From a virus (lineage: Duplodnaviria > Caudoviricetes), in IMG/VR virus record IMGVR_UViG_3300046009_002641, positions 1 to 62,289 of that record: a stretch of DNA of 62,289 nt. One strand, written 5' to 3'. This document shows positions 1 through 62,289 of the stretch, piece after piece. A program made the translations under genes and the position numbers. A model generated the notes under the pieces. The model saw only the letters and a list, made by a program, of their open reading frames with translations. It was not told where the DNA came from and did no database searches. Each line of letters opens with the position of its first letter. Positions within the stretch are counted from its first letter, which is position 1.

Positions 1-127
1 TGGCTAAGACCCCAGCTTGGCAGCGCGCCGAAGGCAAGAATCCAAAAGGCGGGCTGAATGAGAAGGGGCGCGCGTCATTGCGGGCTGAGGGGCATGACAT
101 CAAGCGTCCCCAGCCGGAAGGTGGCTC
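1..127 (+). repeat. Terminal direct repeat, copy 1 (circular assembly overlap)
   Basis: 1-127 is identical to 62159-62285; the match breaks at base 128; unit genome about 62158 bp. Confidence 0.95.
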
Positions 128-3100
128 AAGGCGCGATAGCTTCTGCGCCCGCATGAAGGGCATGAAGAAAAAGCTGACGTTGTCTGAAACTGCCAATGAT
201 CCCGATAGCCGGATCAATAAGTCGCTTCGGGCTTGGAACTGCGCCGATGGTGGTGCGGTTGATTCGTATAATGCAGTTCAAAAAGCCGCTAGAACAGATC
301 CTAGTGCGCCCTATGGCGTTGTGGATATGGGAGATAAGATCATTGTCGGTTCTCCGCACGGAGAACAAATTCCCTTGTCTGATGATTTGAGGGCAAGGAT
401 ACAGGATGTCGCTGGCAAAAGTGGCGCTTGGTATGAGGGATCTGGTGGAGACATTGAAGGAAACAGGAAACTTATTCCTAGCTACAGAGGCTCTTGGGAC
501 GATCAGGTCGCCAGATCAATTGAGGGATATCCTGTCGAATACATGGTCCCCATGTTTAGCAACGTGGAGGTCAATAAGCCGCATGAGATATATGCCAGCC
601 CTGATCGGTCGATATTTGATAGCATCGTGGCTAATCAGGATAAGGCAAAGTATTTCAAGGATCGGCGGTTTGACGCTGATGCGTTGCGTGATTTCTTGAC
701 GCAAGGCAGTGAAAAAGACACTGATCTTGTAAAGATGTCCCAGCTTCCGGCGACGAAGGAAAACCTGAGCAAGTTCTTTTCCACAGGCGAACGTCTTATG
801 TGGCCTGATAACTGGCAGGAATATCCCAACCGTCTTGGTAAGATGGCCAAGCGGTTTGAAGAATCGCGGAACAAGTATCTGCTAAATGCTCCTCCGGGCG
901 TTTATGTCACTGGCGCAGGACACATCCCAGAACTTCGCGGGATGAATAAGGATCTTAAGGTTATTGGTGGCGAAAGAGCCAGTGAAGCGGACGGTGGCCC
1001 TGTTTTTCACAAAGGCCGTGATGAAGCTCATATTAATTTTCAAGTCGCTAAGCCGGGGCCGCATACGACTCAGCTAGGTATTGAGGAGCCATATTTCCGT
1101 CGCTGGCTGTCTGAGAATCAGATCCCGTTTGATCCGAATGAGGCTAAGCCCGACTACGACATGCGTGGCTATTATCGCGCCGCCATGGCTGGAGATCCGC
1201 GCACGGCGACTGAGATCAACGCCAACGATCATCAGCGACATTTCCCGGATGTGTGGAAAACCCCGTCGCATGAAACATTCTCCGCCCAGAGCCAATACGC
1301 CACACCGAATGCCCCCGATTGGAATGAGCAAGATCAGCTAGTCGATAAGGCTGGTCGCGTCTTATATGATGAGCGCATGGGTCGTGACGATGGTGGTGCG
1401 GTTGATTCGTATGCCGCTGTGCAAGAAGCGGCCAAAGGCGGTGAGGTTTGGGATAAGCCCCGCCCCAAGAAGCTGGGCAAGCCTGAGCCGCTGAGCAGCA
1501 AAGAAAAGGCCAGCGCCAAAGCTGCGGCCAAGGCTGCTGGTCGTCCGTATCCTAACCTAATCGACAATATGCGGGCTGCTAGGGCGGATGGTGGCGAGGC
1601 TGATCCGTATGAATCGGTTCAGCAGGCTGCCAATCCAGATTCTGGGATGGAAAGATTTTCCCAAGAGGACATTAACCGCGCGGCCCATGGCGCTACGCCT
1701 GCTGTTCCGCCTTTGACGGTTATTGAGAACGCCGCACCGGCTAGCCCTGTGTCTGATGCTATGCGTGGGGCGTATAATGCTGCGGTTCCTCCAACCGCCA
1801 GATTGTTTGCTGAAAGCGCAATGGGCGCTCATAGCCCGATCACTGAGCGTGATTTTTCCCCATCCGATATTCAAAACATGAAGGATCGACTGGCTGAACA
1901 ACAACAGTTTAATGCCAGAAGAGAAAAAAATCTTCAAACAATCCAAGATACGATGACGCCTGAAGCATACCGTCATTATCAGGCTATGACTGATCAGCCG
2001 ATTGGCAGTGATGAAGATTATCGACGGTATATGGCCCACAACGCTGAGGCCATTAAAACATTTCAGGATACCCGTGGTCAGACAGGCGTTCCATATGGGA
2101 CGACGTTTGGCAAAGAGGATCAGCCTAATCAGCCTCTTAGTGTTTATTCGCCTGAACAGGGCAACCTTCTGACGTCGTTGCAGAGATCATATACTGATCC
2201 GGGCTATCGCACGGGCATGACCCTTGGTCGGTTTAATGTTTATGACACTCCTCAAGGTCGCGTGGCAGTTGATAATTATGATTTTAGAGGTAGGAAACAG
2301 TCGTGGTCAGACGTTGTCAAAGGCTTTCAAGAGCAACCGTTTGTAACTGCTCTTCGTGGATCAATCCCGACGGTATTTCCTAATATTGATCGTCCAGTTG
2401 CGGTCAATTTGGATAAGCCCGGTAACTATACTTACACCGGAAAGGCTATCCTTACCCCCGGTTCTTACTTAGAACCTGAACAAACGCAAACGCCTAAGCG
2501 CGACGATATCGCTGACTACAGAACTAAAACGCCGGGATTCCATCAATTCAATCAGATTGCAATAAACAGCAGGACGCCTGATGTAACGGTTCCTCTTCCC
2601 CCGCGCCGTCCGACGTCCTTTGCCGATGGCGGTGAAGTTATCGGTGATAAAGTCGAAGGCGATGTCCAGTTCGCAGAGGATGATCCCTACGCCAAGGTTC
2701 AGGAAGCTGCCAAGCTTCCCATGATGGCGCAGAACGACTTTGCCATGCGTATGCCGCAGCCAGAAGTCCGCTATGACACTGGCCCGCAGCCGGGTGAGGC
2801 TACCCTTAAAGGGTATGAACCGACGATTCGTGAGCAAATCGCCCAGAAGCTAATGGGTGAGCAGTCCCCGTCTCCTGAACGTCGCCAATTTGTTGAGGGC
2901 CTTATGGGAACCTCCGGTATTGGTGAACGCAGCATGGGTGTTGCCGACTTTATTCCTTTGGCTGGACAGGCGTTGCAAGCTCAGGAGTCGTATCAATATC
3001 GTGATCCTAAAGGATTTTTGCTTGCTACTGTCCCTGTGCCGGGGGCCAATATTGAGGGCAAAATAGCTCAAGGCGCTGCCGCCGCTGCTGAACGTGCTAT

Positions 3101-6011
3101 GGTTGGACAGGCTGCTCAACAGATGACGAAATCACAGTCTCAGGCCGCCATGAAGCAGGCTTGGGAGACTGGGCAAGGTAACGCAGACAAGTATCGTAAT
3201 TGGCAGCACCAATGGAATGTTGAGCAGGGGCCGCAATATACGGTTGCCCAGCCTGCTCCGGCGGCGGTTCCAGCTATGGGGCACAATATGCCGCCTGAAA
3301 CAATCCCGGTTGACTACAATCGTATCGTCAATCCGGCTGGATTCTACAGCCTTGGCCATGAGGTTGCTTCAACGCAACTACCTGATACGGTTCGCACTTG
3401 GCAAGAGATGCAATCCCTTCTCAAAAAGGGCGGCGTCAAAGATGAGGAAATGCAGTTTGCTGGCCTCCTTGGAATGAACCCGGCGACAAAAATCAGCCGC
3501 GATGAAATAGCGCAGGCGTTTGAGCGTAATTTTCCGCAAGTCGAAACGGTGTGGAAACGCAGTTCAGCCCCCGTCCCGGCTGAGAGAATTAATCAGGCTG
3601 TCCAAAATCGGACGCAGGCTCAAAATGATTTGCGTGATGCGAATACTAACCTTTGGAACGCCGCAAATCCTACCCATCAAGAAGATCCGGTTTTGAATAT
3701 ACGCGGGGACGAAACTCCTTGGAGCCTCCCTGATTTAAGAACCGCTTTAATGAATGATCGTGTCAGGTTTGATGATCTTGACGAACATGTTAGAGGCCCT
3801 GCTATGGACTGGCAGGATGCTTGGCGTCGGTATCAAAATGCTGAATCTCAGGTTCGCAATATAGAAGCGCCTACTAGGCCGGAAATGGCTCCGAAATGGG
3901 AGAAATACACGCATTCGGGCGGAACTGATTACTCAGAATCAGTCTTGAGATTGCCGTATAACAACCCGGCTTCGTTTAGGCACATTGCCCCTGAGATTGA
4001 AGTCAAATACTCAGACCAACACGCTGCGTTGAAAGAAAAGCTTTTTAATCTCAAGGAGTCTTATCAAGCTCAAAGATTGAGCGATAATCAGCAGTTTAAT
4101 GCCGCAATGGATGCGTATAAACAACGGTTTTACGATAAATTAATGAATGAAGCGTTGGAATCTGGTTGGTCGCCAGAAGATGCAATGCGTCATGCTAAAA
4201 AGTTTGTCAACGATACCAGTTATAGTGGAATGGCTAATTATCTGGGTGAACCTTATCCACGGGATCTGGATTATATGAGTCCTAGATCTGAGCAGCTAAA
4301 CGAAGAATTATATAAAACCAGAGAAGAAATAGGCGTTCTTACTAATAAAATGCTGGATGAATCGCGCGCTTTGGCTGGGCATCCGTCATATACTGAACAG
4401 GTTTATCGCCACGAAAGCCACCTTGGTAATATAGACAACCCTCTGCTTCACCAGCGTTGGAAAGAGCGCGTTGGGCCGGAGGGCGAGCGCATCTTGTCCA
4501 ATGAGGAGTTCCAAAGCGACCTTGGCCAAGAAGGCGCTGAAAGAGGCTTTAAAGATCCGACTGCCGATAAACGGCGAGTGGAGCTTGAGCGCCAGCGGGA
4601 TGCTTTGCAGAAAGAATGGGATAATGAACAGCGCAAACTGTTGGAAGAAACTAACGCAAAGTCTGCTGCTGTTATGCGCCAAAAGCGCGATGAGATTAAA
4701 CAGGTTACAGATGCTTATAATCAAACAAATCAATTAAGAAGCGCCTTTGACGCATATAATGAACAACTTGCTGCGATTGACGACAAGTATGCGCCTTTGT
4801 TGCAGCCGTTTAAAGATCAGCACAACGCGGCCAGTCAGCAGCTTGCCGCCAAGTATAAGCCAGAGAGCAAACGTCTGAACGACGCGATTGCGGCCATTAA
4901 ACAGCAGGGCGATGTTCCGTTGTTCCCTCATGTCGGCAGCACCGATCAGTGGGTTGAGCTTGGCGCGAAACACGCCCTGCAACACGCCCTTGAGAGTGGT
5001 CACGACAAGATATTTATCATGGGCGGTCAAGAGCAGGCCCGTCGTTGGCAATCTGGGTTGAGGCAGGCAGTTGATAATATTCGATGGGAAGGAGAGGCTA
5101 AACCTTGGAAAGGGTTTGGAACCATCGAAGAACAGGACGCCGCTGAGGAAAGATTTAAAAAGGCTAAAGAAGCACTGTCTAGCACTCTCCACAATGATCG
5201 CAGCTATGATGAGATTGTTAGAGAATTTAATGATGCTCAGGCTGCCATGAGGGACACTGTTCCTGGCTGGGGTCGGAGTGCTTACGATAAGCCTGACCCT
5301 GAAAAAGAGGGATTTAGGACTGTTTACGCAAAACCCTCTAACTATAGCCGTGATGCAAAATTTGTCATTGATAGGAATGGCAATATTATTGACTCATCGC
5401 TATCCAATGTTAAAGGGAAAAAATTAAAAGATGCCGTTGGCGGAGATTTAGCCAAACGTATTATGAGTGAAGAATCCGGCAATATTCCCATGAAAAATTA
5501 TGTTATGGGCGCTGAAGGTTACACTCAACACTATGAGCGAAAAGTCCCGTCTATATACAAAGACATCATCAAAAAATATTTAAAAGTTAATCCCAAAGTT
5601 GAAGCTGGGGCGATTGTGGAGCGCGGAGTGGAGTCAAATGAGATTCCGCCATGGGGTCAGTTAGAACGCCTTGGTTACGGAAAATGGAAAATCAATTTCC
5701 CTGACGGATCATTCCGTGACGATCTATCACGCGAAAAGGCAAACCGGCTTATTGAGCGTGGTAAACAAAACTTTGAGGCCATGGGCCGCACTTGGGAATC
5801 TAAAAACGTCCCGCCGATTGAAGGCCCTCACGGCACCTACATCCACATCACGCCCGAAATGCGGGAAGCTTATCAGCGGATTAAAAAAGAACGCGGGTCC
5901 GTGTTCCCCGGATATGCTGAGGGTGGGGCGGTTGTAAACGGTAGTGATCCGTATGATAATATGCGGTCATTATCTAGGAATTTTCCCCGCGCGCGGCGGG
6001 TTTCTCATTAG
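1..6011 (+). CDS. Giant (~2000 aa) mosaic virion/internal protein; modules joined by ADGG-type linkers; true start at 62158 (MAKTPAWQRAEGKNPKGG...)
   Basis: Open frame from 62158 through the junction; basic N-terminal module ending WNC (DUF6321-like), TraB/TIKI-like module, DYDMRG...HFPD module, EVWDKPRP...NLIDNMRAAR module, large C-terminal EEFQSD-motif domain; lies directly after portal. Confidence 0.85.
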   Translation, partial: AKTPAWQRAEGKNPKGGLNEKGRASLRAEGHDIKRPQPEGGSRRDSFCARMKGMKKKLTLSETANDPDSRINKSLRAWNCADGGAVDSYNAVQKAARTDPSAPYGVVDMGDKIIVGSPHGEQIPLSDDLRARIQDVAGKSGAWYEGSGGDIEGNRKLIPSYRGSWDDQVARSIEGYPVEYMVPMFSNVEVNKPHEIYASPDRSIFDSIVANQDKAKYFKDRRFDADALRDFLTQGSEKDTDLVKMSQLPATKENLSKFFSTGERLMWPDNWQEYPNRLGKMAKRFEESRNKYLLNAPPGVYVTGAGHIPELRGMNKDLKVIGGERASEADGGPVFHKGRDEAHINFQVAKPGPHTTQLGIEEPYFRRWLSENQIPFDPNEAKPDYDMRGYYRAAMAGDPRTATEINANDHQRHFPDVWKTPSHETFSAQSQYATPNAPDWNEQDQLVDKAGRVLYDERMGRDDGGAVDSYAAVQEAAKGGEVWDKPRPKKLGKPEPLSSKEKASAKAAAKAAGRPYPNLIDNMRAARADGGEADPYESVQQAANPDSGMERFSQEDINRAAHGATPAVPPLTVIENAAPASPVSDAMRGAYNAAVPPTARLFAESAMGAHSPITERDFSPSDIQNMKDRLAEQQQFNARREKNLQTIQDTMTPEAYRHYQAMTDQPIGSDEDYRRYMAHNAEAIKTFQDTRGQTGVPYGTTFGKEDQPNQPLSVYSPEQGNLLTSLQRSYTDPGYRTGMTLGRFNVYDTPQGRVAVDNYDFRGRKQSWSDVVKGFQEQPFVTALRGSIPTVFPNIDRPVAVNLDKPGNYTYTGKAILTPGSYLEPEQTQTPKRDDIADYRTKTPGFHQFNQIAINSRTPDVTVPLPPRRPTSFADGGEVIGDKVEGDVQFAEDDPYAKVQEAAKLPMMAQNDFAMRMPQPEVRYDTGPQPGEATLKGYEPTIREQIAQKLMGEQSPSPERRQFVEGLMGTSGIGERSMGVADFIPLAGQALQAQESYQYRDPKGFLLATVPVPGANIEGKIAQGAAAAAERAMVGQAAQQMTKSQSQAAMKQAWETGQGNADKYRNWQHQWNVEQGPQYTVAQPAPAAVPAMGHNMPPETIPVDYNRIVNPAGFYSLGHEVASTQLPDTVRTWQEMQSLLKKGGVKDEEMQFAGLLGMNPATKISRDEIAQAFERNFPQVETVWKRSSAPVPAERINQAVQNRTQAQNDLRDANTNLWNAANPTHQEDPVLNIRGDETPWSLPDLRTALMNDRVRFDDLDEHVRGPAMDWQDAWRRYQNAESQVRNIEAPTRPEMAPKWEKYTHSGGTDYSESVLRLPYNNPASFRHIAPEIEVKYSDQHAALKEKLFNLKESYQAQRLSDNQQFNAAMDAYKQRFYDKLMNEALESGWSPEDAMRHAKKFVNDTSYSGMANYLGEPYPRDLDYMSPRSEQLNEELYKTREEIGVLTNKMLDESRALAGHPSYTEQVYRHESHLGNIDNPLLHQRWKERVGPEGERILSNEEFQSDLGQEGAERGFKDPTADKRRVELERQRDALQKEWDNEQRKLLEETNAKSAAVMRQKRDEIKQVTDAYNQTNQLRSAFDAYNEQLAAIDDKYAPLLQPFKDQHNAASQQLAAKYKPESKRLNDAIAAIKQQGDVPLFPHVGSTDQWVELGAKHALQHALESGHDKIFIMGGQEQARRWQSGLRQAVDNIRWEGEAKPWKGFGTIEEQDAAEERFKKAKEALSSTLHNDRSYDEIVREFNDAQAAMRDTVPGWGRSAYDKPDPEKEGFRTVYAKPSNYSRDAKFVIDRNGNIIDSSLSNVKGKKLKDAVGGDLAKRIMSEESGNIPMKNYVMGAEGYTQHYERKVPSIYKDIIKKYLKVNPKVEAGAIVERGVESNEIPPWGQLERLGYGKWKINFPDGSFRDDLSREKANRLIERGKQNFEAMGRTWESKNVPPIEGPHGTYIHITPEMREAYQRIKKERGSVFPGYAEGGAVVNGSDPYDNMRSLSRNFPRARRVSH

Positions 6012-6052: not shown

Positions 6053-7051
6053 ATGGCACATCCCCACTCTAAAGAGGCCAAAGAAGGCCACGCCAAGAAA
6101 CTGGCTGGCTACGGCGGCAAATCCAAATCATTTGATGACAAGTCGTCTTGGGACGGCTTGAAGGGCCTGAACAATGATGAGCAGGCTGGCCTGAAGATCA
6201 TCGACAAAGAGCCGACGCTTTCTGAAGAAACTGCCCCCCGCATCATGCGTAAACGTGGCGGCGTGGTGAAGGGCAAGATGGCTGTGAAGCGTCTGGATAA
6301 GGCGTCTCGTGGCAAGAAGCGCGCTAATGGCGGTGAGCTTCCCCCTCCGGAAGAAGGCATGAAGGCTGCGGCCCGCGAAAGCGGCATGAGCTACGAAGAA
6401 GCCCCCAAGGAGGGCGGTATCACTGGCGCTGGTGAGGCTGCTGAGTCCTCTGGCCGTCAGGAAGATCGTCATGGTGGCCGCGTCCATAAGGCGGCTGGCG
6501 GCAAGATGTCTCACGAAGATGAGGCTGAGGATCGTTCGCTGATCAAGAAAATGGTCAAGGGTTCGTCGCTTACCGGAAAGAAAGCTGGCGGCGAAGTCAA
6601 GACCAAGAGCTATACGCCTGAGAACAACGTCACCAAGTCGGCTCGCGTTGGCCGCGCGTCAGGTGGCGCAGCTAAAGGCAAGACAACGGTGAACATCATC
6701 GTTGGTGGTGGCAAGGATCAGGCTCCGATGATGCCTCCGGCTCCGGGCGCTCCGGCTGCTCGCCAGCCGATGCAAGCCCCGCCGATGATGCCTCCGCAGG
6801 GTATGCCGATGGCTCCGGCTATGGCTGCTCCTCCGATGGCTGCTCCGCCGCCGGCCCCGCCGATGGGTGGCGCTCCGGGCATGGGTATGCCTCCGGGTGG
6901 TATGCCGCTGGGCCGCAAGCGTGGTGGTCGTATCCGTGATGCTTCGGACCTTACGGCTGGCGCTGGTTCGGGTGAAGGACGACTGGAAAAGATTGAACTT
7001 CAGGAAGCCAAAGGCTATCCGCCGAAAAGCGCCCGCAAGGGTTTCAAGTAG
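6053..7051 (+). CDS. Basic, Pro/Met/Gly-rich low-complexity virion-associated protein with 7 xxxGG motifs
   Basis: Operon position; RKRGG, RANGG, DRHGG, KAAGG, KKAGG, RASGG, RKRGG; long PM-rich tract. Confidence 0.8.
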   Translation: MAHPHSKEAKEGHAKKLAGYGGKSKSFDDKSSWDGLKGLNNDEQAGLKIIDKEPTLSEETAPRIMRKRGGVVKGKMAVKRLDKASRGKKRANGGELPPPEEGMKAAARESGMSYEEAPKEGGITGAGEAAESSGRQEDRHGGRVHKAAGGKMSHEDEAEDRSLIKKMVKGSSLTGKKAGGEVKTKSYTPENNVTKSARVGRASGGAAKGKTTVNIIVGGGKDQAPMMPPAPGAPAARQPMQAPPMMPPQGMPMAPAMAAPPMAAPPPAPPMGGAPGMGMPPGGMPLGRKRGGRIRDASDLTAGAGSGEGRLEKIELQEAKGYPPKSARKGFK

Positions 7052-7465: not shown

Positions 7466-7882
7466 ATGCCGTCAGTCGCAATGTTGCATGAGGTTGACCC
7501 GCGTGAGGCAATCCTTGCTAGAGTTGGCTCCCTTGATGGGATTGAAATGTTTGGTAGCGACCTTTTGATTGCTATCTACAAGCGTCCGACAAAGACAAAG
7601 TCGGGAATTATCCTCACTGACAAGCACTTAGAAGAGGATTTGCATCAGGGTAAGGTGGGTTTGGTCCTTAAAATGGGTCCGACAGCCTATCTTGATGATG
7701 AGGGCAAGTCGTTCCGCGACATTAAAGAGGGTGATTGGGTGGTTTTCCGCCCCTCTGATGGCTGGCGCGTCACGCTGAACACGCTTCGCGGCACTTATTC
7801 CAAGGATGATACGGTCGATTGTCGCATTGTTAGCGACATTTCTGTCCGTTCACGCCTGAACGACCCCGATTCCATCTACTAA
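7466..7882 (+). CDS. groES: Phage co-chaperonin GroES-like protein
   Basis: KTKSGIIL mobile loop, G.VLKMGP, IKEGDWVVF motifs. Confidence 0.85.
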   Translation: MPSVAMLHEVDPREAILARVGSLDGIEMFGSDLLIAIYKRPTKTKSGIILTDKHLEEDLHQGKVGLVLKMGPTAYLDDEGKSFRDIKEGDWVVFRPSDGWRVTLNTLRGTYSKDDTVDCRIVSDISVRSRLNDPDSIY

Positions 7883-14112: not shown

Positions 14113-14790
14113 ATGTCTACCAGTGGGACTTATGCGTTCGCGCCTAATCTGGGCGACTTGGTCATCAATGCTTTTGCAAAATGCGGTGTTCGTCGCACTG
14201 ATTTGACTAATCAGCATATGTCTGACGCGCGTTTTGAAGCTAATCTGATGATGTCGGATTGGGCCGGAGACGGAATCAATCTTTGGCAAGTTCAAAGCGC
14301 AACTATCCCGTTGGCTCAAGGCATATCATCTTACCCAATTCCGTCCGACAGAGTGTTCATTCTTGACGTTTACATAACTCAAAATGGTTTTGATCGGCTG
14401 ATCTTCCCGATTTCGCGTTCTGATTATGCGTCTTTTGCTCAAAAAAACCTTCAGGGCTACCCGACAAGCTTTTGGTTTGACCGCCTAATTGACCCGAATC
14501 TATATGTTTGGCCGGTCCCGGATAGCAGCACAAGCTATATCTTGACGTATTACTACATGCGGCAGGCTATGGACTCAGAATTGACTAACGGAACGCAGCC
14601 TGAAGTGCCGTGGTATTACCTAAACGCCTTTGCGGATGGGTTGGCTGCGCGTCTGGCGTATATCTATGCTCCTGATAAGGTCGCTGTTCTTCAGCCAAAG
14701 GCCGATAAATCGTGGTTTAGAGCGCTTCAGGTTGGCACTGAAAACGTCCCGGTTACGATGAACGTCCAAATGAGGGGCTATTTTAGATGA
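14113..14790 (+). CDS. Head-tail adaptor (tail tubular A / P22 gp4-like)
   Basis: W...GINLW, ISRSDY..., G.P..FW.DR, VWPVPD motifs. Confidence 0.75.
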   Translation: MSTSGTYAFAPNLGDLVINAFAKCGVRRTDLTNQHMSDARFEANLMMSDWAGDGINLWQVQSATIPLAQGISSYPIPSDRVFILDVYITQNGFDRLIFPISRSDYASFAQKNLQGYPTSFWFDRLIDPNLYVWPVPDSSTSYILTYYYMRQAMDSELTNGTQPEVPWYYLNAFADGLAARLAYIYAPDKVAVLQPKADKSWFRALQVGTENVPVTMNVQMRGYFR

Positions 14791-27079: not shown

Positions 27080-27316
27080 ATGGATTCCCAGATGATGATT
27101 AACCTCGCAGCCGGGGCGGTTCTGGCGGGGTTAGGATGGTTTGCGCGCGTCCTATGGGAAGCCGTCAATAAGCTTCAGGAAGATCTACACCAATTAGAGG
27201 TTGAGCTTCCAAGCCATTATCTGCGCCGCGATGAGTTTCATGATACCATGAAAGAAATCAAAGAGATGCTTGGCAAAATCTTTGATCGTCTGGATACTAA
27301 AGCGGACAAGCAATAA
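27080..27316 (+). CDS. Small single-TM coiled-coil membrane protein
   Basis: N-terminal hydrophobic helix, then LP..Y..RDEF...IFDRLD.KADK. Confidence 0.7.
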   Translation: MDSQMMINLAAGAVLAGLGWFARVLWEAVNKLQEDLHQLEVELPSHYLRRDEFHDTMKEIKEMLGKIFDRLDTKADKQ

Positions 27317-28029
27317 TGGCGCTTGATTACACCACTTACGTCGCTCAGATCTCCAACATCATGTCGGTAGATCCTGCGACGACGCAGTTTCAGACGATGC
27401 TGCCCGGCATGATTGCCTACGCTGAGCAACGGATTTACCGTGAGCTTGACCTTTTGAACACTGTGGTTAGGAATGATACAGCCACTCTAATTGCTTTTAG
27501 CCGAAACTTCACCCTTCCGACGACGTCAAACGGCAATTTCATTACGCTTCAGGGCATTAATCTGGTCACTCCGGCGGGCGTTGCGACGATTGCCACTGGC
27601 GTTAGAAATCCTCTTCAGCCCGCTACCAGAGACTTTTTGGATTCGGTCTGGAATAGCGCCACGGGGGCGACACTCCCGAAGCTGTTTGCCATGATCGACC
27701 AGTTCAACATTATTGTTGGGCCTTGGCCAGACGCGGCTTATCAGGTTGAAGTGATCGGGACGATTCGCCCGAATCCGCTGACATCGACCAATAGCACGAC
27801 GTTCCTGACGGACTACCTACCGGATCTGTTTATTGCGGCCAGCATGATTTTTGCCTCTGGCTATCAGCGCGACTTTGGCTCTCAGGCTGACAACCCGGCG
27901 CAAGCGGTATCTTGGGAAAGCCAATATGAGAAGCTGTTTGCGTCTGCTAATGCGGAAGAAATGAGAAAGAAGTTTGCTGGCCCCGGCTGGACAAGCCTTT
28001 CTGCCATTGCCAATCCTCCGGTGAGATAA
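27316..28029 (+). CDS. Second head-tail adaptor-like protein
   Basis: I..AEQRIYREL, GP.PD..Y.VE, T.FL....PDL. Confidence 0.7.
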   Translation: MALDYTTYVAQISNIMSVDPATTQFQTMLPGMIAYAEQRIYRELDLLNTVVRNDTATLIAFSRNFTLPTTSNGNFITLQGINLVTPAGVATIATGVRNPLQPATRDFLDSVWNSATGATLPKLFAMIDQFNIIVGPWPDAAYQVEVIGTIRPNPLTSTNSTTFLTDYLPDLFIAASMIFASGYQRDFGSQADNPAQAVSWESQYEKLFASANAEEMRKKFAGPGWTSLSAIANPPVR

Positions 28030-30442: not shown

Positions 30443-30976
30443 ATGCCCCTGCTTAAAGGTAAAAGCCAAAAGACCATATCCTCCAATATATCGGAGTTGG
30501 TTCATTCTGGTCGCCCGCAAAAGCAGGCAATCGCTATTGCTCTTGACACAGCCCGTAGAGCTAGGGCGTCGGGCGGAGCGAATAGAAAGATCTTTCATGG
30601 CCCAATTGTTACGCCGATTCCGGGAAGAACTGACCGGCTCCCTATCCACGTTTATTCGGGAAGCTATGTCATTCCTGCGGATATTGTTTCCGGTTTAGGA
30701 GAGGGCAACACTCTTGCCGGTTATGAAGCTATCAAGCGCATGTTTGGACACCACCTTAAGGCTAAATACGGCCTTAGGGGATCTTTTCATGAGGACCGGG
30801 AAGTTGTTCCGGTCATCGTGGCGGGTGGTGAGTATATACTTACTCCCGATGAAGTTGAGGCTGCTGGCGATGGCGACTTGGATTCAGGCCATGCCGCTTT
30901 GGACGCTTTTGTTAAATCTCAGCGCCGTAAGTTGAGGCAAAAGCTGGCTAAGTTGCCGGGTCCGGCTCAAGACTGA
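30443..30976 (+). CDS. Basic N-terminal module + RASGG + tandemly duplicated G(E/S)Y(V/I) domain
   Basis: MPLLKGKSQKTISSNI...PQKQAIAIAL; LPIHVYSGSYVIPADIVSGLGEG vs VPVIVAGGEYILTPDEVEAAGDG. Confidence 0.8.
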   Translation: MPLLKGKSQKTISSNISELVHSGRPQKQAIAIALDTARRARASGGANRKIFHGPIVTPIPGRTDRLPIHVYSGSYVIPADIVSGLGEGNTLAGYEAIKRMFGHHLKAKYGLRGSFHEDREVVPVIVAGGEYILTPDEVEAAGDGDLDSGHAALDAFVKSQRRKLRQKLAKLPGPAQD

Positions 30977-47761: not shown

Positions 47762-48153
47762 TCAAGCGCAGGCAGATAGAATCCGGTATTCAGCGCGGGA
47801 TCGTGCAATACATCCGTTCAGTCCTTCCAAGGGCTGTATTGATGGCGATTCCCAACGGTTCGCAGCGCACTGCATCTGGTCGCCCTGCCAACGCTGTGCC
47901 GGGTTTCCTGCCGGGCGCTCCTGATTTGATTCTTGCTTTGCCTAACCGTGAAGTGATTTGGATAGAGGTTAAGTCACCTATTGGCCGGTTGAGCGACAAC
48001 CAAAAACACGTTCACGCCATGCTTGATACGATAGGCCACAAGATTATTCTGGCGCGTTCGATTGACGATATTCGTGAAGCTTTTGCGTATTACGGCATAA
48101 AAACTAAGGATACATGGAATGGAGAACCTAGAGATGGCGAAGGAAGCAATTAA
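47755..48153 (+). CDS. VRR-NUC nuclease
   Basis: E..IQ, IPNG, G.PDL, IEVK...GRLS..Q. Confidence 0.85.
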   Translation: MVIKRRQIESGIQRGIVQYIRSVLPRAVLMAIPNGSQRTASGRPANAVPGFLPGAPDLILALPNREVIWIEVKSPIGRLSDNQKHVHAMLDTIGHKIILARSIDDIREAFAYYGIKTKDTWNGEPRDGEGSN

Positions 48154-48727
48154 GTGGCAACATGAGTGGGTTGAGCACGCGAAAAAGATATTGGCTGCTG
48201 GCGGATCTATGGGCGAGGCAGCTAATGGCGTAAACCACAAATTTGGTGTTCGCGTAACCCGAAACTCCATGATTGGGAAAATCCATCGTTTAAAGGCTGA
48301 TGGCGATTTTAATTTGCCCGAACCTGAGCAATGGAAAAATAAATCCATGGAGACCTTTGTTAGCTATTGGCATAGCGGAATCTCCAGCACTGACATTGGG
48401 CATTACTTTGGGGTTGAGAGCAGCACAATCCGCGACAAAGCGTATAAATATGGATTGACCCCTAGAGGGACTGAAACTGGTTGGCGGGCGCTTAAAAAGC
48501 CTGTTCCTAAAACGGTGAAAGTCGCATCTGACGGTATTAGTAAGCGCACGACGTTTCCTAATCCTAAAGCCAAAGCTGTGCTGTTTGAAAATTTAACTAG
48601 CCGGATGTGCCGCTTCGTTATAGGGGATAAGCCTTTCTACTTTTGCGGCGCTGATGTCGAACTTGGTTCGCCTGTCCCTTACTGCACACATTGCAGGAAG
48701 GTGATGTATACGCCCTCTAATCGCTAG
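48119..48727 (+). CDS. gcrA: GcrA-like cell-cycle regulator (start may be 48134)
   Basis: TRNSMIGKIHRL HTH; C-terminal L....CRF.IGD...FCG.....YC..C; extra internal HTH. Confidence 0.8.
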   Translation: MENLEMAKEAIKWQHEWVEHAKKILAAGGSMGEAANGVNHKFGVRVTRNSMIGKIHRLKADGDFNLPEPEQWKNKSMETFVSYWHSGISSTDIGHYFGVESSTIRDKAYKYGLTPRGTETGWRALKKPVPKTVKVASDGISKRTTFPNPKAKAVLFENLTSRMCRFVIGDKPFYFCGADVELGSPVPYCTHCRKVMYTPSNR

Positions 48728-48737
48728 GGAGGAAAAA

Positions 48738-49292
48738 GTGGCGACAGATAAAAATTTTGTAGACTCTAACGATATTGTTCACTTGTTAGAGAAACAATAC
48801 GAAACCACAGGTTTGAAGGTTTTGCGTATTGCCGCTTCTGAGTTGCGCCGGTTGTATAAACTTCTTGATCAGGAAGTTTTGAAAATTGAAAATGGAGAAC
48901 CTGAAAACCTTACGATTCGTATGAGCGTTGTTCTTAAAATGGCGCATCGGTATTTTGGCATGTCTATTGATGACATTATATCGCACAAGCGTTCGCTGAA
49001 ATACATGGCTCCCCGTCAGGTGACGATATATGTCGCCCGCAAACTTACGGACCTTTCAACGCCGCAAGTTGGAAAATGGTTTGGCGGTCGTGATCACACC
49101 ACCGTTATCCATGCCTGCAAAAAGGTCGATGAAGAAATAAAAAAGAACAATAAGCAATGGATCAAATACGTCGATGAACTTTCTGCGCTGTGCAAGAAAG
49201 AAGCTGCTATTGAGCATGAGAGAATAGAGGAAGCTAAAAGATGTCAGAGGATACAGAATCTTTCGCTGAGACGTCCCGCGTTGACGCCGTGA
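48738..49292 (+). CDS. DnaA C-terminal (domain IV) DNA-binding domain protein
   Basis: R......PRQV..Y.AR.LT.LS.PQVG.WFGGRDHTTVIHA..KV; no AAA+ domain. Confidence 0.85.
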   Translation: MATDKNFVDSNDIVHLLEKQYETTGLKVLRIAASELRRLYKLLDQEVLKIENGEPENLTIRMSVVLKMAHRYFGMSIDDIISHKRSLKYMAPRQVTIYVARKLTDLSTPQVGKWFGGRDHTTVIHACKKVDEEIKKNNKQWIKYVDELSALCKKEAAIEHERIEEAKRCQRIQNLSLRRPALTP

Positions 49293-59926: not shown

Positions 59927-62152
59927 ATGGAACATTATAATCTTCGTCAGTCCGGTCCCGGCCAAGCGTCGTTGCCGGATGAGGAAACCGTTAACCTTGG
60001 CGGTCTTGAGGAAGCGGTCAAAGACGCCAGCATTCTTCAGGTTGAACTGTCTGACGGTTCGGTGAGCATTAACTTTGCGCCTCATGTCAAAGCTGGTGCG
60101 GGCGACGATACGGACCATGATGAGAACCTTGCCCTGCATGTCGATAGCGGCGAGCTTGCTAATGTGGCCGACAATCTGCTGCGCCATATCCGCGAGGACA
60201 TCACCCGACAGGAACAGCGCCTTCAGGACGTTGTGAAGGGCATAGATCTACTGGGCATTAAGCTGGAGGAACCGCGTGGCGAACCGAACGATGAGGGCAT
60301 ATCGGTTGTGCGTCATCCCTTACTCCTTGAAGCCGTCCTGCGGTTCCAAGCGAACGCGCGTGGTGAAATGCTTCCGGCTGACGGACCTGTCAAAGTTGCG
60401 AATGATGGGGATCAGACGGTTGAGCTAGACGCCGTCGCCAATGCTCTTGAGCAGGACATGAACCACTATCTGACGGTGGGCGCTCCTGAGTATTACCCTG
60501 ACACGGATCGTATGTTCTTCACGCTTGGCCATGGCGGCGAGGCGTATAAGAAGGTTTATTTCCATCCGATCAAGCGTCGTCCTGTCTCTGAGACGGTGGA
60601 CCGCAAGGATCTGATTCTTTCCGATGGCGCGGTGAGCCTTGAGGCTTGTAGCCGTGTCACGCATCGCTCCAAAATGCGCCCGTCAGAGATCAAGCGTATG
60701 CAGCTTGCTGGCGTCTGGCGTGAAGCCCCGCTTGGACCACCGGCCATGTCTACGATGGCGACCAACACGGTTGATGTGGCGCTTCAGAATATCTCTGGCT
60801 TTGATCCCAAATCGACGGTTGAGCCCGAAGAAGTCGATAGAGAGATTTACGAATGTTATTGCGAGATTGACCTACGCGGTTATGAGCACAGTGAGGACGG
60901 CGAGGCTACTGGTCTTGCGTTGCCCTACCGTGTGACGATTGACAAGGATTCTAAGCAGATCCTTGAGATCCGCCGCTGGTGGGAGGAAGGCGATGATACC
61001 TACACCCGCAAAGAAGTTTTCGTGGAATACGTTTTTGTCCCAGCATTTCCCGGTGTTAACTTGGGTCTGCTGCATATCTTGGGAAATGCCACTCGCGCTC
61101 TTACTGCTGCTTGGCGTATTGCTCTGGACAATGGAATGCTGGCTAACTTCCCCGGCGGCATCATGGCGCGCAGCACCGGTAAGCAGCAGACGACGTCCAT
61201 CCGGGTTGGACCCGGACAGGTAGCGCCGATGGATGCTGATGGCGTTCCGCTCAAGGAAGCCTTCATGCCGCTGCCTTACCGCGATGTGACAGGCGGCTTT
61301 GTCCAGATCATCCAGAACGTAGAGCAGACATCTCAGAGGCTGGGCGGCACTGCTGAAACGGCTGTTGGCGAAGGCCGTAGCGATGCTCCGGTTGGCACCA
61401 CGATTGCCCTGATTGATCAAGCGACGAAGGTTCTGAGCGCGGTCCATAAGCGGATGCACACTGCCCAGCAGAAAGAGTTCGCTCTGCTGAAGGATCTGTT
61501 CAAGAAAGACCCGGAAGCTTTGTGGCGTTCAAACCGAAACCCGGCTTTTGAGCGTGATGTTGCCCGTCTTGAGGAAGCTCTGGCGAACAAGGACATTGTC
61601 CCCAAGGCCGATCCGAACACGGCTAGCCAGACGCTGCGTATCCAGAAGGCCATCGCCATTTACCAGATGGCTAAAGAAAATCCGGCGATGTTTAACCAGA
61701 AAGAGGTTTACACCCGGATCATGGGCATGGTCGGCATTGAAGATGCTGAGAGCCTGTTCAACAACTCTCCCGGCGGCCCGCCGCCGATTGACCCGATCAA
61801 GCAGATGGAAGCCAACGCCAAGCTTGCCGGTGTGCAGGCCAAGGTCGCTGAGATGTCCAGCCGCCAGCAGATCGCCGCTAGCCAAGAGCAGACCAAGATC
61901 GCCATGGCCCAAGCCAAGATGGCTGAGACGAAGGTGCGTGAAAAGGAGGTCGCTATCGATGCGGCTAATCACGCTGCGGATCGTCGGTCGAAGGAAGCTC
62001 TGGCTCAAGCAGATTTGCAGCAGTCCATGCTGGTTCACTCCGACAAGCTTCTGAAGGATCGTGCATCCATGCAGGCTGATGATGAGTATCGTCGTCAAGA
62101 AGCTGAGTTCAAGCGCCAACAGGCGATGCAGAAACCCCCGTTTGAGAGCTAA
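59927..62152 (+). CDS. Portal protein
   Basis: HPLLLEAVLRFQA.A..E..PA.GPVK, KKVY, PY.VTID, DNG.LAN.PGG, PVGTTIAL, SAVHKRMH; coiled-coil tail. Confidence 0.92.
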   Translation: MEHYNLRQSGPGQASLPDEETVNLGGLEEAVKDASILQVELSDGSVSINFAPHVKAGAGDDTDHDENLALHVDSGELANVADNLLRHIREDITRQEQRLQDVVKGIDLLGIKLEEPRGEPNDEGISVVRHPLLLEAVLRFQANARGEMLPADGPVKVANDGDQTVELDAVANALEQDMNHYLTVGAPEYYPDTDRMFFTLGHGGEAYKKVYFHPIKRRPVSETVDRKDLILSDGAVSLEACSRVTHRSKMRPSEIKRMQLAGVWREAPLGPPAMSTMATNTVDVALQNISGFDPKSTVEPEEVDREIYECYCEIDLRGYEHSEDGEATGLALPYRVTIDKDSKQILEIRRWWEEGDDTYTRKEVFVEYVFVPAFPGVNLGLLHILGNATRALTAAWRIALDNGMLANFPGGIMARSTGKQQTTSIRVGPGQVAPMDADGVPLKEAFMPLPYRDVTGGFVQIIQNVEQTSQRLGGTAETAVGEGRSDAPVGTTIALIDQATKVLSAVHKRMHTAQQKEFALLKDLFKKDPEALWRSNRNPAFERDVARLEEALANKDIVPKADPNTASQTLRIQKAIAIYQMAKENPAMFNQKEVYTRIMGMVGIEDAESLFNNSPGGPPPIDPIKQMEANAKLAGVQAKVAEMSSRQQIAASQEQTKIAMAQAKMAETKVREKEVAIDAANHAADRRSKEALAQADLQQSMLVHSDKLLKDRASMQADDEYRRQEAEFKRQQAMQKPPFES

Positions 62153-62158
62153 GACAAA

Positions 62159-62285
62159 TGGCTAAGACCCCAGCTTGGCAGCGCGCCGAAGGCAAGAATC
62201 CAAAAGGCGGGCTGAATGAGAAGGGGCGCGCGTCATTGCGGGCTGAGGGGCATGACATCAAGCGTCCCCAGCCGGAAGGTGGCTC
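62159..62285 (+). repeat. Terminal direct repeat, copy 2 (carries the 5' end of the giant ORF, ATG at 62158)
   Basis: Identical to 1-127; ATG 62158-62160 is in frame with ORF 78..6011 across the junction. Confidence 0.95.
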
Positions 62286-62289
62286 TCTC

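Follow-up and report, generated by a model that had tools for sequence, protein, structure and literature searches.

What does a small protein encoded between the tail genes and the ejection genes of a short-tailed phage contribute to the virion? The question is raised by a 177-amino acid (aa) open reading frame (ORF) in IMG/VR record IMGVR_UViG_3300046009_002641 (Duplodnaviria; Caudoviricetes), a complete virus record of 62,289 bases that is referred to below as the window. The protein, here called the chassis, is on balance probably a virion-internal docking and carrier protein of short-tailed phages, most likely kept with the ejection proteins. It would be the minimal, cargo-free form of a conserved carrier. 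An initial annotation, made from the DNA letters, had described a stand-alone protein with a basic N-terminal module, an RASGG motif and two tandem half-repeats, and had proposed it as a reader or protease for Gly-Gly signals. The ORF and these parts were confirmed as described.

Judged from sequence comparison, the chassis appears to consist of four parts (Table 1): a basic DUF6496-like helical hairpin (the N-module), two copies of a lambda-type tape-measure C-terminal element (units R1 and R2), and a basic helix ending LPGPxxD, which reads LPGPAQD in the window. R1 comprises, in order, IPGRTD, a hairpin with SGSYVIPAD, and GEGN; R2 comprises a hairpin with AGGEYIL followed by GDGD..GH..LD. 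The two units were related by BLASTP (10/32 identities; expect value (E) 6e-6), and a hidden Markov model (HMM) of either unit matched the other in most of 150 cluster representatives, confirming the internal duplication that had been proposed. The G(E/S)Y(V/I) pair was a single occurrence among the six-frame ORFs of the window.

Homologues comprised 2052 proteins of 97 to 310 aa, 485 of 311 to 2000 aa and 306 of 30 to 96 aa, and no functional name was obtained from any source for any member of these three sets. A profile search of 1.84 billion cluster representatives returned 6999 matches at E ≤ 1e-3 and 639 at E ≤ 1e-30. Module HMMs were applied to the best 150 representatives, which were 149 to 1462 aa in length. 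R1 and R2 were present in 150, the N-module in 144 and the C-terminal module (Ct) in 147, and the order N-R1-R2-Ct was invariable. The upstream TD had been assigned to the first half-repeat only and the GE to the second only; this was true in the window and family-wide, with GR[TSA]D before R1 in 260/260 members and [AST]GGE in R2 in 254/260, these strings being the anchors of the 260-member count itself. Pfam (to E ≤ 5) and NCBIfam searches of the 177-aa protein gave no family and no domain, and no PHROG or Pfam match to ejection families of the T7 gp13-16 or P22 gp7/16/20 type was obtained for it. R2 gave only weak PHROG matches, to phrog_11341 and a tape-measure family (phrog_934, tape measure, E 0.073). 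Neither the chassis and its R unit nor DUF6496 was found described in the literature searched.

The strongest new fact, the insertion of cargo at the Gly-Gly junctions of this protein family, speaks less for an enzyme than for a protein that carries or docks. The slots were defined as slot A, between the N-module and R1, and slot B, between R1 and R2. Among 144 anchored clusters, an insert of at least 60 aa was present in slot A in 77, in slot B in 15, in both in 2 and in neither in 50. The term stand-alone holds for the protein in this genome but not for the family, in which 94 of the 144 clusters bear an insert of this size. Because 50 clusters are without cargo, the chassis itself must do something in the ejection apparatus.

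Of 29 long forms submitted to Pfam, 9 gave a named domain and 20 gave none. The named cargo was ART-PolyVal in five (three above and two below the Pfam cut-off), ADPrib_exo_Tox, InPase (a pyrophosphatase), NUDIX, and NUDIX with DUF6098. Slot A inserts with ART or InPase were flanked by two xAxGG-type motifs. Near-isogenic IMG/VR contigs, with adaptor and nozzle genes at identical coordinates, carried different versions of the gene: an empty one of 190 aa, one of 237 aa with a 47-aa mini-module, one of 337 aa whose insert had no known identity, and two with enzymes, ART-PolyVal in 417 aa and InPase in 391 aa. All junctions in these versions bore (R/K)AxGG. Relatives in other short-tailed phages carry swappable enzymes, probably for injection into the host. 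A search for loci related to the NUDIX-bearing protein P0201 returned none. The 47-aa mini-module (phrog_16028; starting GGLYANIHAK) also behaved as an independent slot A cassette, in some cases preceded by an enzyme domain and in others not (L091 6001-6714; P0127 aa 241-283).

The chassis gene lies beside those of the ejection proteins. The window has SU10-type portal, adaptor and nozzle genes, and its genes run in the order adaptor, nozzle, p119 (a 119-aa ORF), chassis, GNAT and internal virion protein. In 80 related loci, the nozzle gene was upstream of the chassis gene in 78, the other two having no upstream DNA, and the GNAT gene was directly downstream in 74, the other six contigs ending within 250 bases. 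Split, insert-bearing matches were found in 12 of 56 further loci, with GNAT in the same slot in all ten that had DNA past the gene. Long and short chassis forms share a single slot, nozzle-chassis-GNAT-internal virion protein. The scans of window proteins revealed no tape measure.

Every junction in the alignments bears (R/K/F/Y)AxGG, and G44 and G45 of RASGG are conserved at 90% or more. An [AS]xGG string ends 3 to 24 residues upstream of the R2 anchor (AGGE) in 219/247 members and 10 to 39 residues upstream of the R1 anchor (GRTD) in 172/260; the tight link between R unit and xAxGG that had been suggested is upheld by the first of these counts. The clade of the window has lost the motif before R2, where other clades show xxGG in the alignments; the MW202675 homologue, for one, retains the canonical FADGG. 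Strict xAxGG motifs were counted in window proteins and compared with shuffled expectations: the giant post-portal ORF held 4 versus 0.30, a 332-aa protein (6053-7051) 3 versus 0.24, the internal virion protein IVP1765 6 versus 0.79, and the chassis 1 versus 0.07; the other 24 window proteins tested held 1 in total. In the 80 related loci, plus-strand ORFs downstream of the chassis gene held 226 motifs versus 52.8 expected (about fourfold), whereas the upstream tail genes held 25 versus 34 expected. Since the enrichment is found in genes for internal proteins and is absent from tail genes, the Gly-Gly signal was considered real and specific to the presumed internal proteins. These counts, in the window and in the 80 loci, also confirm that the gene lies directly before internal proteins rich in the motif. 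The further expectation that R units would accompany motif density across phages was borne out in direction, but only 7 loci were compared and base composition confounds the result.

In adenovirus, African swine fever virus and the poxviruses, core proteins mature at Gly-Gly and are cut by packaged clan-CE cysteine proteases. The likeness lies in internal virion proteins punctuated by short xxGG motifs; the present system differs in that no clan-CE enzyme was recognised among the proteins scanned and cleavage at xAxGG is only putative.

AlphaFold2 models were built with 58 to 62 aligned sequences. The whole protein was predicted with a mean predicted local distance difference test score (pLDDT) of 86.7 and a predicted template modelling score (pTM) of 0.64, and aa 50-177 with values of 87.9 and 0.79. 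The N-module was modelled as helices 9-21 and 26-44; R1 as strands 66-71 and 75-77 with helices 79-85 and 90-101; and R2 as strands 121-126 and 131-133 with helices from 135 and 146. The pLDDT dipped to 62 at the RASGG block and to 59-60 in the linker at aa 102-119. With the motif regions at about 60, the xAxGG segments therefore behave as linkers. The higher pTM of the R part suggests that R1 and R2 fold as one compact pseudo-dimeric domain, with the N hairpin loosely tethered, and the pseudo-dimer put forward in the initial annotation is in this respect supported by the prediction.

Conservation was high at G53 (98%), T63 (95%), D80 (95%), N89 (97%) and G93 (98%) of R1; at P135 (98%), H150 (93%) and D154 (95%) of R2; and at R161, L171 and P174 (95% each) of the C-terminal part. 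The conserved polar set comprised R62, T63, D64, D80, S83 and N89 in R1, and E130, D145, H150, D154 and R161 in R2. The expected asymmetry of acidic residues was observed: D64 is kept in R1 only, and E130, H150 and D154 in R2 only. No solved fold matched the R1-R2 domain, PDB sequence searches giving chance matches only. A BFVD fold search returned uncharacterised phage proteins only, and the ESM Atlas returned unnamed viral clusters plus one named lead at chance level. For crAss_CARG1 (PF25725) there was no Pfam match at E ≤ 5; the Atlas feature score was 0.85 with 114 shared features, a result rated as often due to chance.

Each unit has glycine-rich loops between its helices, two in all, in which D, N, E and H are conserved, and this would suit a metal- or envelope-binding module. 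The Gly/Asp/Asn-rich loops (GEGN in R1, G.GD.D.GH in R2) would then bind Ca2+ or Mg2+, or a component of the host envelope, and the exit channel would in this way be induced to open or be held open. One single-unit protein record is labelled 'calcium-binding protein' (the depositor's label, unverified), but no Pfam metal-binding family was matched and no search matched the loop to a named motif. This explanation was considered very improbable.

R units were also found outside the chassis family. Single units, placed after xAxGG and often with GPG..(S/T)D.I, end post-nozzle proteins of three other phages: a 295-aa protein of Planktothrix phage Pag-Yong1; gp065c, annotated as a tape measure, of Caulobacter phage GB2A; and a 'tail tape measure protein' of phage DSL-LC04. 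The single units keep both (S/T)D and GE. In MW202545, a 640-aa protein closes with two tandem R units and has no N-module. In the DSL-LC04 'tape measure' (L141 16132-18411), five tandem copies of a 17-aa unit, YAGMDLSSAQGTLGGPS, were observed ahead of the C-terminal R unit.

A segment of the type (F/Y)AxGG...SD.IPA.LS.GEFV had been named in the initial annotation as a feature of tape-measure and internal proteins. It was found in the DSL-LC04, GB2A and Pag-Yong1 proteins, and gpH of phage lambda has FATGG, a GEFVF hairpin and YATGG, in that order, at about aa 733-790. The gpH segment matched 1002 phage records, tape measure being the annotation of most among the 30 listed. According to passages of the 2025 Ur-lambda paper (PMC12617516), gpH is cleaved to gpH* and gpHC within a Gly-rich region close to the C-terminus, and the site and catalyst of this cut are not known some 50 years after its finding. 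The same passages state that residues 818-849 of gpHC remain attached to the tail tip in the particle and that gpH residues 690-817, within which the R-type element lies, are unresolved in structures (PMC12617516).

The lambda-type element (gpH about aa 729-790, within gpHC) resembles the R unit in its succession of (F/Y)AxGG, short spacer, GE(F/Y)V beta-hairpin, helix and G.G loop, and in the Xaa-Ala-Xaa-Gly-Gly motifs that flank it. It lies, moreover, at the exit-end terminus of a protein that, in those passages, leaves the virion before the DNA (PMC12617516). The window protein, which comes from a short-tailed phage, differs in being soluble, in having two copies within 177 aa and no ruler region, and in the loss of Glu from R1 and of (S/T)D from R2. 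The R unit would be a conserved element beside the lambda tape-measure cut, and the small, soluble two-unit protein a convenient handle on an old question.

These observations bear on the proposal that R1-R2 acts as an enzyme or reader of pseudo-dimeric build, whose single composite site (D64 of R1; E130, H150 and D154 of R2) recognises and cuts xAxGG in cis and/or in trans. The cut would free the cargo and mature the internal proteins, and single R units would explain the cut in lambda gpH. The [AS]xGG strings near both anchors accord with such an activity, as do the placement of the motifs in low-pLDDT linkers and on either side of cargo domains, and the uneven division of the conserved polar residues between the two units, single units keeping both (S/T)D and GE. 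The lambda gpH cut falls in a Gly-rich stretch just upstream of the R-type element in the passages cited (PMC12617516), and none of the window proteins scanned could be recognised as a dedicated head protease, a set from which minus-strand and early-region ORFs were absent.

The 177-aa protein had, however, no Pfam, PHROG or NCBIfam peptidase match and no solved relative by sequence. The R2 of the window has lost its upstream motif, and many xAxGG motifs lie far from any R unit. The DSL-LC04 unit is without the His and the LD, so that no catalytic set is common to all units. The composite-site reader or protease was considered unlikely; it is kept alive by the coupling of motif and unit, the conserved polar set and the open question in lambda. 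What stood of the initial proposal was the fold, the residue asymmetry, the link to Gly-Gly and the position, but the catalytic or peptide-reading activity was not supported, neither a peptidase family nor a solved fold having been matched.

In a variant that we regard as distinctly unlikely, each R unit would by itself direct processing at Gly-Gly, as a new and very small fold that cuts the xAxGG just upstream, either autoproteolytically or by recruiting a protease. If this were true, the R unit would free the injected enzymes in the chassis family and cause the cut of gpH to gpH* and gpHC in lambda, and the 177-aa protein, with its one composite site (D64; E130/H150/D154), would be the simplest test object.

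Two other likenesses were dropped. That to LexA and signal peptidases (a GDSM..GD.V motif) had no tool support, and R62 stands where the Ser would be. For an HxxxD (LAS/M23-like) reading of H150-D154 there was no second His motif and no fold match.

The N-module was traced separately. Residues 1-48 of the chassis were matched by phrog_2423 at E 7.7e-18 (52 profile positions; PHROGs). PF20106 (DUF6496) gave no match to the window protein at E ≤ 5, and matched 6 of 7 short N-module relatives scanned. The likeness to the small basic phrog_2423/DUF6496 proteins is confined to this module; they differ in being stand-alone proteins of 42 to 70 aa with poly-Lys tails and without R units. A set of 98 stand-alone N-module proteins had a median length of 54 aa, a median net charge of +12 and poly-Lys/Arg tails, and the Gly-Gly C-terminus expected of a cut product was present in 0/98. 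The module also heads otherwise unrelated proteins, namely, in Acinetobacter phage AB1, a DUF2213 protein labelled 'head maturation protease', and the product of a Nudix-annotated gene of Burkholderia phage BCSR129.

The charge of these proteins and the spread of the N-module among unrelated ones, together with a net charge of +6 on both the N-module and the C-terminal tail of the chassis, are compatible with a DNA-escort (pilot) protein. In that case the N-module and the C-terminal helix would bind phage DNA, for example at its leading end, and the protein would be packaged and injected riding the genome, not by docking on the portal or core. This was considered distinctly unlikely.

The AB1 'head maturation protease', gp17 (L002 3001-4374), consists of the N-module fused to Pfam DUF2213. 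The N-module match was common to about 75 Acinetobacter phage records.

For a docking and carrier protein, the following sequence of events is envisaged. The R1-R2 domain and the C-terminal LPGP tail would dock the protein at the portal/nozzle axis or on other ejection proteins, by analogy with the tape-measure C-terminal fragment docked at the tail tip. The basic N-module would contact DNA or the capsid interior. During infection the protein would leave via the nozzle, and any inserted enzyme would be carried along. The xAxGG linkers would either act as hinges or be cut to release the modules.

Three known systems were compared with this scheme. In phage T4, the internal proteins and Alt have a short N-terminal capsid-targeting tag and cut sites, by which enzymes destined for injection, an ADP-ribosyltransferase among them, enter the head. 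The T4 leader is roughly 10 aa and is cut after Glu by the gp21 protease. The chassis differs in that its constant parts amount to about 170 aa, the junction is xAxGG and the protease is not known. For cargo protein C1 (gp45) of crAss001, an ejected cargo protein, passages of PMC10172136 describe a compact domain of approximately 128 aa (aa 425-552) present in 12 copies on the portal inside the capsid, with other parts of the same chain threaded toward the exit.

Polyvalent proteins with the enzyme domains named above as cargo were predicted to be packaged in the virion and injected, according to passages of Iyer et al. 2017 (PMC5512222). Packaging and co-injection are likewise predicted here for the chassis family. 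Relatives of the chassis are alike in combining ART-PolyVal, InPase or NUDIX domains in one polypeptide encoded among virion genes, and the late/virion gene neighbourhood matches in the window and in 74 to 78 of the 80 loci. The window protein differs in having no effector or Pfam domain; its relatives do show the multi-domain feature. The passages of PMC5512222 hold no account of the chassis, the R unit or xAxGG junctions. They propose zincin-like peptidases for processing, and none is present in the window protein.

Several points weigh against the docking and carrier interpretation. The placing of the protein in the virion comes from gene order and the nature of the cargo, and its docking partner is only a proposed one. 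The compact packing of R1 on R2 is an AlphaFold prediction only. Conserved polar residues in such number exceed the usual need of a plain docking domain and would suit a metal site or an enzyme. Statistically, the lambda gpH link is weak: hhalign of the family profile against gpH aligned 42 columns to gpH 729-772 at E 0.003 with a probability of only 10%. Cargo-state changes were counted on a FastTree tree of 107 R columns, and the resulting figure of at least 36, versus 49 to 57 in ten shuffles (of 200 run), is rough.

Injection of enzymes with the DNA is known or predicted for phages, and the mechanism by which they are loaded and carried is unknown for most short-tailed phages. The chassis family would be a concrete, widespread and unnamed carrier with constant ends, two insertion slots and a short junction motif, of which natural variants range from empty to 1462 aa. 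The part responsible for loading, the role of xAxGG as hinge or cut site, and the delivery of foreign cargo via the slots are now directly testable.

Table 1. Parts of the chassis gene and neighbouring genes, with coordinates in the window.
Feature	Coordinates	Strand	Evidence or remarks
Whole gene, cargo-free chassis protein	30443..30976	+	ORF of 177 aa plus stop; 2052 near-length homologues
N-module, aa 1-45	30443..30577	+	Predicted basic two-helix hairpin; invariant MPL start, RASGG end
RASGG, aa 41-45	30563..30577	+	xAxGG-type junction motif; site of cargo slot A in relatives
Unit R1, aa 53-101	30599..30745	+	Predicted beta-hairpin and two helices; holds GRTD, PAD, GEGN
Linker, aa 102-119	30746..30799	+	Low confidence; second xAxGG of most relatives lost; slot B in 15-17 clusters
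Unit R2, aa 120-157	30800..30913	+	Predicted beta-hairpin and two helices; AGGEY, G.GD..GH..LD; net charge -10
C-terminal basic helix and LPGPxxD tail, aa 158-177	30914..30973	+	Conserved residues; Ct HMM
Nozzle-type virion protein, 679 aa	28031..30070	+	phrog_3287, E 4.7e-58
GNAT acetyltransferase, 154 aa	30984..31448	+	PF13508 and PF00583
Internal virion/ejection protein IVP1765, 1765 aa	31460..36757	+	phrog_4287 'DNA ejection protein', Hydrolase_2, Peptidase_S74; xA(D/E)GG-rich

Among the neighbouring genes, GNAT was also found inside the ejection cluster of the more distant Roseobacter phage CRP-901 and Octadecabacter virus DB2 (L143 23000-23434; L144 12224-12580), where the R unit was not seen. 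In IVP1765, Peptidase_S74, a self-cleaving intramolecular chaperone, lies at aa 309-360, in the N-terminal third rather than at the C-terminus; SleB/Hydrolase_2 lies at aa 877-993, YAEGG and MADGG fall within aa 826-875, and there are long poly-Gly runs. The 332-aa protein is encoded between the giant ORF and the capsid genes, had no family match and may be a scaffold or another internal protein.

The last approximately 130 bases of the window (62150-62289) repeat its first bases (1-140), as a terminal overlap or through circular permutation of the assembly. Given this repeat, the true start of the 5'-open giant ORF (3-6011) is an ATG immediately behind the portal stop, and the ORF encodes about 2003 aa. 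Its product has DUF6321 at the N-terminus, no other named domain, and five to six copies of a longer unit, xADGG then (A/E)(V/A)D(S/P)Y..VQ.AA. It may be a polyvalent-type head protein at the MuF position of Mu-like phages.

A Cpn10/GroES-like gene lies at 7466-7882, between the portal and major capsid genes, and occupies the same place in CRP-901. The genome contains two genes with SU10_adaptor domains, at 14113-14790 and 27316-28029. Adjoining genes for a GcrA-like protein and a DnaA C-terminal-domain protein were located at 48119-49292; these may point to a host of alphaproteobacterial type and to interference with its cell-cycle or replication control.
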